This document shows, one piece after another, positions 33,561 through 56,110 of a DNA stretch of 64,000 bases. The stretch is from positions 89,004 through 153,003 of the forward strand of contig CAXHJY010000078.1 in assembly GCA_964016885.1 (NCBI GenBank), written 5' to 3'. Below the pieces are notes generated by a model. The model did not search any database, was not told the DNA's origin, and saw only the letters and a program-made list of their open reading frames with translations. Position numbers and translations under genes: made by a program. Source of the DNA: Eledone cirrhosa. Its lineage: Eukaryota. Position 1 is the first letter of the stretch, and each line of letters begins with the position of its first letter.

Positions 33561-33754
33561 AACGAAGGAAGTGTGGTAAGGAACCAGGTGGACCATAACG
33601 CACCCGAGTACACGATACTTTGGGTGGTAGAGTGGGTAATAGGAAAAGAGTCAGGACCCCGACGGCAGAACTCAAGCCGTTTTGACAGCTATTTCTGAAC
33701 TGAAATAGCTGTCGAAACGGGTTGAGCTCTGCCGTCAGGGTTCTGACTATTGTC
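33561..33754 (-). mobile_element. Short hairpin-plus-tail element, family A, inserted in (TA)n
   Basis: Tail aacgaaggaagtgtggtaaggaaccaggtggaccataacg... is followed by an inverted repeat centred on gacagctatttc-tgaact-gaaatagctgtc. Homologous to copies at 33769, 35599, 45314 and 52270. Confidence 0.85.
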
Positions 33755-33768
33755 ATATATATATATAT

Positions 33769-33928
33769 AGCAGCGAGTAGGACCCCGACGGCTGAGCTCA
33801 AGCCGTTTCGACGGCTTGAGTTCAGCCGTCGGGGTCCTACTCGTTCCTATTACCCACTCTACTACGCTAAGTATTGAGTACTTTGGTGCGTTATGGTCCA
33901 CCTGGTTCATTACCACATTTCCTTCGTT
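33769..33928 (+). mobile_element. Family A hairpin-plus-tail element, opposite orientation to the preceding copy
   Basis: Hairpin gagtaggaccccgacggctgagctcaagccgt-ttcg-acggcttgagttcagccgtcggggtcctactc, then the tail ending ...taccacatttccttcgtt(at)n. Confidence 0.85.
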
Positions 33929-33954
33929 ATATATATATATATATATATATATAT

Positions 33955-34527
33955 ATAAAATATTAAAAAAATAATGAATAAAACAATGAAACAGTTCCTT
34001 ATATTAAACAAAAAAAGTTCATTATTTAACGATCGTTTCTAGGATATATATGTGTTAGAATTGGCATGCATATTCAACAGATCTATGTACAAAATTATAC
34101 AAAATTATACAAACTATCAAAATTAAATATACATACCAAACACATATATATGCCGTCTTCAGAAATATTATATTAGATTATTTCTGAAGACGGCATATAT
34201 ATGTGTTTGGTATGTATATTTAATTTTGATAGTTTTTTTATTTTTGTATAATTTTGTACATAGATCTGTTGAATATGCATGCCAATTCTAACACATATAT
34301 ATCCTAGAAACGATCGTTAAATAATGAACTTTTTTTGTTTAATATAAGGAACTGTTTCATTGTTTTATTCATTATTTTTTTAATATTTTATCTTGACTCT
34401 GTATTCCGTTTATCTTTCACCGAAAGTGATTTTTCATTGCATCTCTTCTTTCCATGATATCCGGATTATATTGAGTTCTTCATACGGATTGGACACTACC
34501 GTAAACTCTTGGTAGATTTATCTACAT
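33955..34527 (+). mobile_element. Fold-back element: ~213-bp inverted repeat plus ~135-bp unique tail; probable Penelope-like pLTR inversion product
   Basis: 33955-34167 is the near-perfect reverse complement of 34179-34391 (11-nt spacer, a few mismatches). Flanked by (TA)n on both sides. Confidence 0.85.
34177..34325 (+). ncRNA. Type I hammerhead-ribozyme-like motif with greatly extended stem II
   Basis: Stem I attattt/aaataat; core CTGAAGA 34184-34190; stem II gg-c-atatatatgtgtt ... aacacatatatat-cc; GAAA 34307-34310; palindromic stem III a-cgatcg-t; putative cleavage triplet GUU. A mirror copy lies on the minus strand at 34021-34167. Folded by eye. Confidence 0.6.
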
Positions 34528-34552
34528 AATATATATATATATATATATATAT

Positions 34553-34713
34553 AGGGTGCGGACGATATTTGTTCGCAATTTTTCAACTGCTAATTTTATG
34601 GAGTTTTTTTTTTACCTGTCTTCATAAAAACTGACTATATTTCCATCATTTAAAACTACTGTGTTATTGTCACCTAGACAGTAATCTTGCGAACAAATAT
34701 CGTCCGCACCTTG
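34553..34713. mobile_element. MITE with ~26-bp terminal inverted repeats (Tc1/mariner-like) in (TA)n
   Basis: agggtgcggacgatatttgttcgcaa ... ttgcgaacaaatatcgtccgcaccttg, with TA on both flanks and no coding capacity. Confidence 0.8.
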
Positions 34714-51571: not shown

Positions 51572-51736
51572 ACGTCTCTCGCATGCTTTACGTTATAATT
51601 ACGTCTCTCTTGCGTCTCTCGCATGCTTTACGTTATAATTGCGTCTCTCGCATGCTTTATGTTATAATTGCGTCTCTCGCATGATTTACGTTATAATTGT
51701 GTCTCTCCCATGCTTTACGTTATAATTGCGTCTCTA
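51572..51736. repeat. 29-bp tandem repeat, about 5 copies, in a TACGT-rich region
   Basis: cgtctctcgcatgctttacgttataattg repeated. Confidence 0.85.
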
Positions 51737-52269
51737 CGTTGTTTACGTTAAGACCAAATTCCACACGTTCCTTACGTTATAACGTGTCTCTACACTAAGA
51801 AGCACGCCACTCACGTTCTTTACGATATCACCAGCTTCTAGGTTGTTATTTTGTCGCGAGATTAAATATGAAAAAAATACGAGAAACATCGTATATCGAC
51901 ATGACAGTAAGGTACTGTATTTAGTGTTTATTCTGGGGTCACGTACTAAACTGGTACTTTATTTATCGAACCTCCAGTGCAGAGAGCCGGAACGACTAGA
52001 TAGTTCCACTCACCGTGGCACAATTCTGAACAAGTTGATGTGGAAAGGCAAAGACCGATGCAACTTGGCACCAGTGTCATCACAACTAATATACATACAA
52101 GCACACACTCTCTCTCTCTCTCTTTCTCTCCTTCCTCTCCCCCACATACACACATATATTTGTAAGCGCACACACATTTGTAAACACATATACACATATA
52201 TACAGATATATATATATATATGTGTGTGTGTATATATGTATATGTATATATACATATATAAATAAATAA

Positions 52270-52486
52270 AACGAAGGAAGTGTGGTGAGGAACCAGGTGG
52301 ACCATAACGTACCAGAGTACTCAATACTTTGGGTAGTAGAGTGGGTAATAGGAAAAGAGTCGTAACCCCGATGGCAGAGCTCAAGCCGTTTCGACAGCTA
52401 TTTCTTGACCTATTTCGACAGCTATTTCCAGAAATAGTTGTCGAAACGGTTTGAGCTCTACCGTCGGGGTTCTGACTCTTTTCCTA
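52270..52486 (-). mobile_element. Family A hairpin-plus-tail element
   Basis: Same tail and arms as 33561-33754, with a duplicated ttcgacagctatttc at the hairpin apex. Confidence 0.85.
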
Positions 52487-55400
52487 TATATGTATATATA
52501 TATATATATGTATATATATATATATATATGTATATATATATATATATGTATATATATGTATATATATGTATATATATATGTATATATATGTATATATATA
52601 TGTATATGTATATATGTATATGTATATGTATATATATATGTATATATGTATATGTATATATATATATGTATATATATATATATATATATATATATGTATA
52701 TATGTATATATATATGTATATATATATATGTATATATGTATATATATATATATGTATATGTATATATATATATATATATGTATATGTATATATATGTATA
52801 TATATATATATGTATATATATATATATGTATATATGTATATATGTATATATGTATATATATATATGTATATATATATGTATATATATATATATATATATA
52901 TGTATATATATATATATATATATATATATATATATGTATATATATATATATATGTATATATATATATATATATATGTATATATATATATATATATATGTA
53001 TATATATATATATATATATGTATATATATATATATATGTATATATATATATATATATATGTATATATATATATATATATATATGTATATATATATATATA
53101 TATATATATGTATATATATATATATATATATGTATATATATATATATATATATGTATATATATATATATATATATGTATATATATATATATATATATGTA
53201 TATATATATATATATATATGTATATATATATATATATATATGTATATATATATATATATATGTGTATATATATATATATATATATATATATATATATGTA
53301 TATATATATATATATGTATATATATATATATATATATATATGTATATATTTATATATATATATGTATATATATATATATATGTATATATATATATGTATA
53401 TATATATATGTATATATATATATGTATATATATATATATATATATGTATATATATATATATATATGTATATATATATATATATGTATATATATGTATATA
53501 TATATATATATGTATATATATATATATATGTATATATATGTATATATATATATATATGTATATATATATGTATATATGTATATATATGTATATATGTATA
53601 TATATGTATATATGTATATATATATACATATATAAATATATATATATATATATATATATACACATATATATATATATATATACATATATATATATATATA
53701 TATACATATATATATATATATGTATATATATATATATATATATGTATATATATACATATATATATATATATGTATATATATATATATATATGTATATATA
53801 TATATATATATATGTATATATATATATATATGTATATATATACATATATATATATATATGTATATATATATATATATGTATATATATACATATATATATA
53901 TATATGTATATATATATATATATATGTATATATATGTATATATGTATATATATATATATATGTATATATATACATATATATATATATATGTATATATATA
54001 CATATATATATATATATGTATATATATGTATATATATGTATATATGTATATATATGTATATATATACATATATATATATATATGTATATATATACATATA
54101 TATATATATATGTATATATATGTATATATATGTATATATATGTATATATATATATATGTATATATATATGTATATATATATGTATATGTATATATATATG
54201 TATATGTATATATATTTATATATATATATATATATGTATATATATATATATATATATATATATGTATATATATGTATATATATATATATATATATATGTA
54301 TATATATATATATATATATATATATATATATATGTATATATATATATATGTATATATGTATATATGTATATATATATATGTATATATATATATGTATATA
54401 TATATATATGTATATATATATATGTATATATATATATGTATATATGTATATATATATATGTATATATATATATGTATATATATATATGTATATATATATA
54501 TGTATATATATATATATATGTATATATGTATATATATATATATATGTATATATATATATATGTATATATATATATATATGTATATATATATATATGTATA
54601 AATGTATATATATATATATATGTATATATATATATATATGTATATATATATATATATGTATATATATATATGTATATATATATATATGTATATATATATA
54701 TATGTATATATATGTGTATGTATGTATATATATATATGTATATGTATATATATATATGTATATATATATATATGTATATATATATATATATGTATATATA
54801 TATATATATATGTATATATATATATATATGTATATATATATATATATGTATATATATATATATATATATATATATATATATATATATATGTATATATATA
54901 TATATATGTATATATATATATATATATATATGTATATATATATATATGTATATATATATATATGTATATATATATATATGTATATATATATATATATATA
55001 TATATATATGTATATATATATGTATATATATATATATATATATATATGTATATATGTATATATATATATATATATGTATATGTATATATATATGTATATA
55101 TATATATATATATATATATGTATATATATATATATATATATATATATGTATATGTATATGTATATATATATGTATATATATATATATATATATATGTATA
55201 TATATATATATATATATGTATATGTATATGTATATGTATATATATATGTATATATATGTATATGTATATGTATATATATATGTATATATATATATATATG
55301 TATATATGTATATATGTATATATATATATATGTATATATATATATATATGTATATATGTATATATATATATATATGTATATATGTATATATATATATATA

Positions 55401-55490
55401 TATGTATATATATATATATATATATGTATATATATATATATATATGTATATATATATATATTATATATATATATATATATATATATTATA
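52487..55490. repeat. 3-kb (TA)nTG array
   Basis: Seen directly. Confidence 0.97.
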
Positions 55491-56110
55491 TATATGAAAT
55501 ATAAGAATCAAAGAACTGTTCAAAACATTATTGTGCTTACAGCTGTTTCCTCCAAACCGAGGTTTGGATTCTTCGGAGCAATTTATTAATGCATGGACAG
55601 TTATATGACCTCCTTTTCAGCCGAGAGACATACCAATACATATTCAAACATTGATACATATTCAAACATTGTGGGTCAACATTCATTACAAAATTTAGAG
55701 TGGCAGTACACACTTCGAGATTACTGTGTGTACTGCCACTCTAAATTTTGTAATGAATGTTGACCCACAATGTTTGAATATGTATCAATGTTTGAATATG
55801 TATTGGTATGTCTCTCGGCTGAAAAGGAGGTCATATAACTGTCCATGCATTAATAAATTACTCCGAAGAATCCAAACCTCGGTTTGGAGGAAACAGCTGT
55901 AAGCACAATAATGTTTTGAACAGTTCTTTGATTCTTATATTTCATATAACTGCTCTGTAAATCATCTGATGTTTTTACATTGAGCTACTTAACTTACTGG
56001 TAATAAGGTAGTAATACATTACTGCCTACCACTATTTAGGGTGTGTGTAAAATACTTACAACTGCTTAAGGTTTTGTGTTTACATAACCATAAATAGTAT
56101 AACTAATACT
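55491..56110 (+). mobile_element. Fold-back element: ~223-bp inverted repeat plus ~160-bp unique tail; probable Penelope-like pLTR inversion product
   Basis: 55491-55713 is the reverse complement of 55726-55948 (one mismatch noticed, 12-nt spacer), embedded in multi-kb (TA)n. Confidence 0.88.
55859..55905 (+). ncRNA. Minimal type I hammerhead-like motif (CCGAAGA core variant)
   Basis: t(a/g)ct CCGAAGA a tccaaacc tc ggtttgga g GAAA cagctg TA agca: 8-bp stem II, palindromic stem III, GUA triplet. The minus-strand copy at 55534-55580 has a perfect tgct/agca stem I. Confidence 0.65.

Follow-up and report, generated by a model that had tools for sequence, protein, structure and literature searches.

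The stretch analysed here, a 64,000-nt window of contig CAXHJY010000078.1 from Eledone cirrhosa, is repeat-rich animal DNA, in which a 33-kb AC-rich satellite is followed by TA/TG microsatellites, short interspersed repeats, a reverse transcriptase (RT) that carries a PHD finger, and two Penelope-like elements (PLEs). Arrays of (TA)n make up ~23% of positions 33317-64000, and they hold short mini-elements, termed A, B, C, E, and F, in which an inverted, 5'-truncated copy (the arm) stands beside a forward copy that runs on into a one-sided tail. We consider these mini-elements to be (TA)n insertions, probably made by the RT/GIY-YIG machinery of PLEs, whose arm was probably built anew at each insertion and not inherited.

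Architecture of the mini-elements

Nine elements from at least five sequence-unrelated families had been predicted in the (TA)n arrays. All nine were located where the original prediction had placed them, and each of them contained an inverted 5'-truncated copy beside a forward copy. The design of inverted arm, forward copy and one-sided tail was common to the five sequences A, B, C, E, and F, with tails of 38-163 nt by our measurement against the 40-160 nt claimed. Eight of the nine elements were bounded by (TA)n on both sides or by A/T-rich, TA-like sequence on one side; for E, TA was limited to a brief run where the tail ends. An all-against-all BLAST of 12 segments returned A-A and A-D matches and otherwise only short AT-rich matches of 13-25 nt, and by this comparison the five families are mutually unrelated in sequence.

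Family A was represented by five copies of two subfamilies; their arms ranged from about 14 to 60 nt, and their tail of ~78 nt was shorter in A3 and A4. A1 (33562-33753, minus strand) had an inverted arm at ~33697-33755 and a forward copy running from 33696 to 33562, with the ~78-nt tail at its end. A2 (33770-33927, plus strand) belonged to the second subfamily, and its arm was joined to the forward copy by a 6-nt microhomology (33811-33816). A3 (35600-35712, plus strand) seemed arm-less at first, but a 14-nt inverted arm was found; it also used an alternative 3' end. The long inverted arm of A4 (45315-45410, plus strand) was fused directly to the final ~45 nt of the tail, and A5 (52271-52484, minus strand) had a longer forward part than any other copy, with ~12 nt additionally duplicated at the junction.

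The remaining families each occurred once in the window. In B (33957-34528, plus strand), arms at 33957-34167 and 34179-34389 (3 mismatches in 211) enclosed an 11-nt loop, and the tail measured 139 nt. F (55493-56109, plus strand), a young insertion, was built similarly: only 12 nt of loop separated its arms at 55493-55713 and 55726-55946 (1 mismatch in 221), and its tail was 163 nt long. C (34781-34967, plus strand) had arms of ~50 nt, a spacer of ~50 nt, and a 38-nt tail that ended sharply at (TA)n, and in E (39520-39727, plus strand) arms of 39 nt stood around a 76-nt spacer and were followed by a possible tail of ~54 nt with an ill-defined end. A tenth element, D (34983-35135, minus strand), was absent from the earlier list. 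Folding was far stronger than chance (z = -50 for F and -12.9 for A2), and read-through RNA of fold-back copies would be predicted to form a long duplex with the ribozyme buried in it.

No open reading frame (ORF) was present in any mini-element, and a search for tRNA found none. When 122 proteins (the two PLE pieces of the window and 120 homologues of the first of them, PLE1) were used in tblastn, the two PLEs were the only matches. The elements had been described as asymmetric and thus unlike miniature inverted-repeat transposable elements (MITEs). This description held for A, B, C, and F, in which the tail was at one end and inverted repeats at both termini were not seen, while E may plausibly be either a PLE stump or a MITE.

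Inversion points of family A

The arm of family A began at the same base in all five copies, and the forward part began at reference positions 1, 14, 30, 44, and 110, so that all five junctions differed. Sequence overlaps were found at the junctions of A2 (6 nt) and, as judged by eye, of A3 and A4 (4-5 nt). Both arms of a copy belonged to one subfamily, no variants were confined to left arms, and the arms within a copy diverged by 10-16%, which was like the divergence between copies of a subfamily. An inherited hairpin had been considered for A1 and A5 on account of apparently arm-specific variants; it was rejected, as the variant occurred in three of the four arms.

Reads and contigs of 4 of 23 runs (X1, X4, X6, and X21) were placed on 33562-33927 at 80% likeness, and the results below refer to 15 listed joints of 143 and to 24 loose-end rows of 761. 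The left end of A stood against TA repeats in 3361 reads and the tail end in 803 reads, and no part of the family was better conserved or covered to greater depth than the tail, whose end was fixed. The centre was mixed: 2505 loose ends behind 33816 had an agreement of 0.5, the arm joined at least five tail positions (33857, 33862, 33871, 33884, and 33894), short arms joined at 33844/33853, and depth fell at the centre of A1. The alternative 3' end of A3 also appeared in reads, as a loose end behind 33924. The inner end of the arm seems to contain a restriction site from which the reads of restriction-site-associated DNA (RAD) sequencing start, and hairpins interrupt the short-read contigs.

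The inversion point of family A is therefore variable, and its outer ends are fixed. A fixed inversion point, which the original prediction took as the mark of a true non-autonomous family, was found neither among the five copies nor in the heterogeneous centre seen in reads. Variable inversion points indicate products formed insertion by insertion and not fold-back units that move whole.

Hammerhead motifs and the resident Penelope-like elements

Most families had been thought to contain hammerhead-like cores, which was an overstatement. A whole motif was found in F, a 3' half with decayed core-like heptamers in A, and a single core heptamer in B; the motif search revealed none in C or E. A search with Rfam gave 0 matches at the gathering threshold, and no hammerhead was among the 150 listed of 448 matches by E-value, a list of microsatellite noise. 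A type I descriptor, relaxed after the motifs had been inspected and run on hand-chosen non-satellite segments of 15.6 kb, found four motifs (the left arm of F, both terminal repeats of PLE1, and PLE2), whereas 200 shuffles averaged 0.2, a null that is favourable to motif finding because of the relaxation and the choice of segments. The right arm of F was missed owing to one change in stem I, and D was missed since stem I is absent.

The minimal type I hammerhead of F (55859-55906, plus strand) had an 8-bp stem II, a palindromic stem III, and a predicted cut after 55901, and a mirror copy started from 55576 on the minus strand. F was thus the only one of the five mini-families with a whole motif of this kind. 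Its core was non-canonical, with U4C (at 55863) and no G10.1-C11.1 pair; these changes were present in both arms, so the template must already have had them. U4C has been reported to lower in vitro activity considerably (PMC3088659).

In F and A, the hammerhead or its remains lay about 45-210 nt upstream of the element ends. Isolated 3' halves such as that of A numbered 21 against 13.6 expected, which is weak evidence alone. A type II hammerhead inside a single A copy was considered and rejected, as stem II was unpaired and stem I was offset or weak (-2 to -6 kcal/mol). The lone 7-nt heptamer of B (34184-34190), 5 nt from the start of the forward copy, had no matching 3' half; by a post-hoc test, its chance was about 0.001 within the first 12 nt and 0.07 anywhere in the forward copy and tail. 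D began inside a hammerhead core; stems II and III were present, and the 5' side of stem I and the first core base were lost, the latter to the TA run. At its end, a 38-nt segment was 82% like the arm of family A (score 41, reached by 0 of 2000 shuffles), and a weaker motif was common to D and the A tail (score reached by 8 of 2000 shuffles). The two A-like motifs follow the hammerhead in an order reversed relative to family A, and D may be a diverged two-unit fragment.

The first resident PLE, PLE1 (40625-43920, minus strand), was near full length and flanked by microsatellites, with 69-nt pseudo-long terminal repeats (pLTRs) at 40625-40693 and 43851-43919. Each pLTR carried a hammerhead on the minus strand (40640-40693 and 43866-43919) with U4A and a 5-bp stem III. 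Its ORF, from 43717 to ~41600, was interrupted by stops and frameshifts, and its homologues are proteins of ~700 amino acids. PLE1 showed a C-terminal GIY-YIG, a CxCX5C linker, CxxC and CxH motifs, a short single ORF, the hammerhead, and a (TA)n target, and it is accordingly Hydra-like as assigned by motifs, without a tree, against the clade definition in PMC8557442. Its long 3' region contains a diverged (78%) direct duplication of 138 nt at 40774-41052. Naiad PLEs, another clade, are described as having no hammerhead (PMC8557442).

PLE2 (61750-63375, plus strand) was 5'-truncated at the RT catalytic motif, lay in TA-rich flanks, and had lost ~30 amino acids in GIY-YIG. Its hammerhead (63116-63160, plus strand) was the only canonical minimal one. 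An alignment with 6 of 65 homologues revealed a CX2-5CxxC linker before a C-terminal GIY-YIG with CCHH, and by this alignment, without a tree, PLE2 appears Neptune-like. Pfam recognised neither PLE piece, and weak RT/GIY-YIG matches were obtained for four of eight proteins scanned.

Two features of the hammerheads were also observed. The 5' boundaries of the B forward copy, D, and the upstream pLTR of PLE1 (34179-34190, 35128-35135, and 43910-43920) lie 0-5 nt from the first core base and not at the cut site, and that of F differs, lying 137 nt upstream. Position 4 is altered in two unrelated elements, PLE1 (U4A) and F (U4C).

Other repeats surround these elements. The satellite at 1-33316 is strand-asymmetric: its plus strand contains A and C only, with G and T nearly nil over 33 kb. 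A short interspersed repeat occurs in six copies that are 75-92% alike (35178-35304, 35856-35986, 37032-37217, 37333-37415, 38874-39059, and 48318-48497), and we take it to resemble an octopus short interspersed nuclear element (SINE). The non-LTR RT at 59343-61513 (minus strand; Pfam RVT_1, E 2.6e-32), presumably RTE-like, has an embedded PHD finger and is interrupted by a TA array. A decayed inverted-repeat element with 40-nt repeats that are 82% alike was found at 51207-51394. Minisatellites whose units measure ~29 nt or ~40 nt, together with a (CAC)n array, occupy 35990-36815, 48535-50060, and 46417-48280.

Insertion model, alternatives and known systems

The architecture and TA context of the mini-elements match published PLE insertions, and the predicted PLE link and microsatellite targeting were borne out in this respect. 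The inverted 5'-truncated copy with a one-sided tail is typical of insertions by endonuclease-containing (EN+) PLEs (PMC8557442, PMC3846280), and a bias to (TA)n has been published for the Hydra and Naiad clades (PMC8557442). Formation of the arm at each insertion is suggested by the fixed outer ends against (TA)n, the variable inner junctions, some with microhomology, the membership of both arms in one subfamily, and the hammerhead remains. The involvement of PLEs is further indicated by the motif of F, which has the published minimal traits and exceeds shuffles, and by two PLEs of (TA)n-associated types in microsatellites. Both of these had been proposed as the mobilisers. They are indeed present with microsatellite flanks, but neither is intact or has any sequence in common with the mini-elements; they reveal that suitable enzymes existed in the lineage, which is not proof that these two families did the work. 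The case for insertion of this kind is best made for A and F; B and C are plausible examples, and E is the weakest.

A possible mechanism can be drawn from the purified PAc protein of Poseidon (PMC11167929). On AT-rich DNA, this enzyme nicks each of the two strands and extends them; its reverse transcription begins at two internal sites of the RNA, whose spacing equals the tail, and hammerhead catalysis was unnecessary for insertion in vitro. In the window, one nicked strand would prime cDNA at the distal site and yield the forward copy with its tail, and the other would prime at the proximal site and yield an arm without a tail. Both cDNAs would stop early, and their ends would be joined head to head, often by microhomology. 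Once inserted, a copy would go no further, since the hammerhead in its read-through RNA would lie hidden within a perfectly paired duplex. A different route, self-priming, was put forward by Arkhipova et al. (PMC3846280); the window data fit the two-primer and self-priming models alike.

Several observations weigh against PLE-driven formation of the arm at each insertion. No sequence common to the mini-elements and either PLE of the window (pLTR or flank) was found by BLAST, and no mini-element copy was traced into a PLE ORF within the 64 kb. The tails of A, B, E, and F (54-163 nt) exceed the 30-40 bp quoted for PLEs (PMC8557442), with C alone in that range, and C and E are without a hammerhead. 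As B, C, E, and F are single copies in the window, the variable-junction result comes from family A only, and its junction spectrum is incomplete because of the 15 of 143 joints listed, the RAD reads, and the contig breaks. In addition, the A4-type junction (33816 to 33884) recurred in X1, in two contigs with a summed depth of 218 against 5-12 for long single contigs, that is, about twenty times one long contig; this recurrence points either to a hot spot of microhomology or to a fixed subfamily of small size.

The nature of the template of family A was considered separately. The family was seen in four runs from four studies under three organism labels. No RNA data set was listed as containing it, which carries no information on its expression. 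In X1, 22,622 contigs matched A, and at two positions in the tail the summed depth came to 2-3.5 million each, whereas long single contigs had 5-12; in X21, 26,451 of 12,467,656 reads (0.21%) matched, and X4 (organism B) and X6 (organism C) contributed 46 and 22 contigs. These figures are not copy numbers themselves and suggest roughly 10^4-10^5 copies. No description of the family was found in the literature searched; Repbase, Dfam, and the supplement of PMC13282606 were outside this comparison, so it may already be catalogued. The octopus repeat annotation in PMC13282606 does not mention hammerheads in its available text. A 16-mer scan of a prokaryotic collection gave 78 loci against about 280 expected, which were taken as chance with the loci not inspected, and two metagenome scans and one viral scan gave 0 matches.

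Such abundance, together with the lack of an ORF in any copy, would suit a true non-autonomous passenger derived from a retrozyme, that is, a dead hammerhead unit of ~105 nt copied in trans by a PLE. Non-LTR retrozymes are non-coding, hammerhead-derived, and proposed to be PLE passengers (PMC7229834; bioRxiv 10.64898/2026.07.22.740005), and published units of 51-972 bp include solo monomers (bioRxiv 10.64898/2026.07.22.740005). In a contig of X6 (depth 85.6), an intact core heptamer stood where the heptamer of the A tail differs at two bases, and the letters upstream resembled the sequence after that core, giving by eye a period of ~103 nt. In X21, loose ends behind 33701 (1643 reads, agreement 0.69) contained a second decayed heptamer ~20 nt upstream of the 3' half of A, and the heptamer spacing gave, again by eye, a period of ~105 nt. 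These periods suggest a partial tandem of a small dead-hammerhead unit in A, which is a lead only, and D likewise couples a hammerhead to A-like segments. The periods come, however, from a single contig and a single mixed consensus, the latter no longer than 30 letters; the upstream letters in X6 lack an intact 3' core, and extreme 5' truncation of a coding PLE also yields many short copies. No complete hammerhead or pair of whole units was seen in any family A copy, and the window contained no array like that of retrozymes, in which two or more adjacent units all have a complete type I hammerhead.

We regard it as about equally likely that family A was copied from a short non-coding repeat unit whose hammerhead is dead and that it was copied from a coding PLE. 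The passenger proposal, a sub-case of PLE-made insertion, is a serious contender that falls somewhat short of even chances. More tentative still is its fullest form, in which family A would be a SINE-like PLE passenger, namely a ~105-nt retrozyme unit that has lost catalysis, has kept the signal for internal priming, and is dispersed in (TA)n in tens to hundreds of thousands of copies, each with a freshly built inverted arm; D and the variant of organism C would then be relatives that keep an intact core.

A second alternative is that some elements, above all E, are MITEs or relics of DNA transposons with TA target duplications, in which flanking DNA was mistaken for a tail. The 39-nt arms of E enclose an unrelated 76-nt spacer and are each bounded by TA, and its tail meets a short TA run only. 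Moreover, a truly symmetric MITE-like element (34554-34712, strand not assigned) with perfect 24-nt terminal inverted repeats (TIRs) and an asymmetry of at most 3 nt sits in the same TA array as the mini-elements; it is a contrast case and not a member, and it reveals that genuine TIR elements also occupy these arrays. The conserved, deeply covered tail of A with its fixed end, the near-perfect hairpins of B and F with their 11-12 nt loops, and the sharp end of the C tail at (TA)n nevertheless make this explanation unlikely.

The original prediction had envisaged a population of ribozyme-bearing fold-back units moving as such, with a fixed inversion point and working ribozymes. The recurring A4-type junction and the presence of a hammerhead in both arms of F would fit this view. 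In X1, however, the recurring junction has a depth of 218 where the arm has ~2.8 million, a share of <0.01%; all five A junctions differ without arm-specific variants, and whole hammerheads are confined to one of five families, with cores otherwise altered or partial and the motif buried in the fold-back RNA. Mobility of whole units is thus very improbable, and for family A it is largely refuted. Least credible of all is an origin by host repair at fragile arrays or by sequencing or assembly chimeras. Inverted duplications could arise in (TA)n arrays, which are abundant here, but the arm starts at the same base in five A copies and thousands of reads, the A arms are 10-16% diverged, and the family recurs across runs, studies and organism labels.

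Stumps of this kind can readily be mistaken for MITEs, SINEs, or hairpin RNAs, which gives their recognition practical value. The abundance of family A would provide thousands of junctions for a test of the two-primer PLE model, which is still unproven. If the family is non-coding with a dead hammerhead, it would lend in vivo support to ribozyme cleavage being unneeded for insertion, and if the SINE-like reading is true, it would constitute a natural test of ribozyme dispensability and a huge junction library for arm formation.

Among known systems, the short non-autonomous PLEs, such as MRC1 and other Chlamys derivatives (PMC8557442) and the short Penelopes of Heliconius (PMC6685494), form an existing category of non-coding riders on PLE enzymes to which family A may be akin; they match the 3' ends of known autonomous families, whereas no partner was found for A. 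Non-LTR retrozymes resemble A in being non-coding, in a unit range that includes ~105 nt, and in the existence of solo monomers, but A shows no complete tandem or intact ribozyme and is dispersed as an inverted copy plus tail in (TA)n. The minimal PLE hammerheads of Cervera and de la Pena 2014 (PMC4209133) are characterized by a long helix II, a helix I of 4-5 bp, and a palindromic helix III, and they occur in truncated PLEs as opposite-strand pairs 100-700 bp apart. F agrees with them in its 8-bp helix II, short helix I, palindromic helix III, and two opposite-strand motifs ~290 bp apart, and differs in U4C and the missing G10.1-C11.1 pair. The PAc insertions of Frangieh et al. 2024 (PMC11167929) share with the mini-elements an AT-rich target and two fixed 3' ends that bound the tail and follow the cut site of the hammerhead by roughly 100 nt; that study did not show the head-to-head joining of cDNAs that we infer for the window elements. 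The closest counterpart is the insertion unit of EN+ PLEs, in which a truncated inverted copy likewise abuts a forward copy with an extension at one end, (TA)n is targeted (Hydra, Naiad), and a hammerhead, seen here as a whole but non-canonical motif in F and in decayed form in A, lies near the 3' end; the mini-elements differ from it in tails of 38-163 nt against 30-40 nt, in having no ORF attached, and, for A, in being far shorter and very abundant. The design is thus already known as the standard PLE insertion unit and matters little as architecture.

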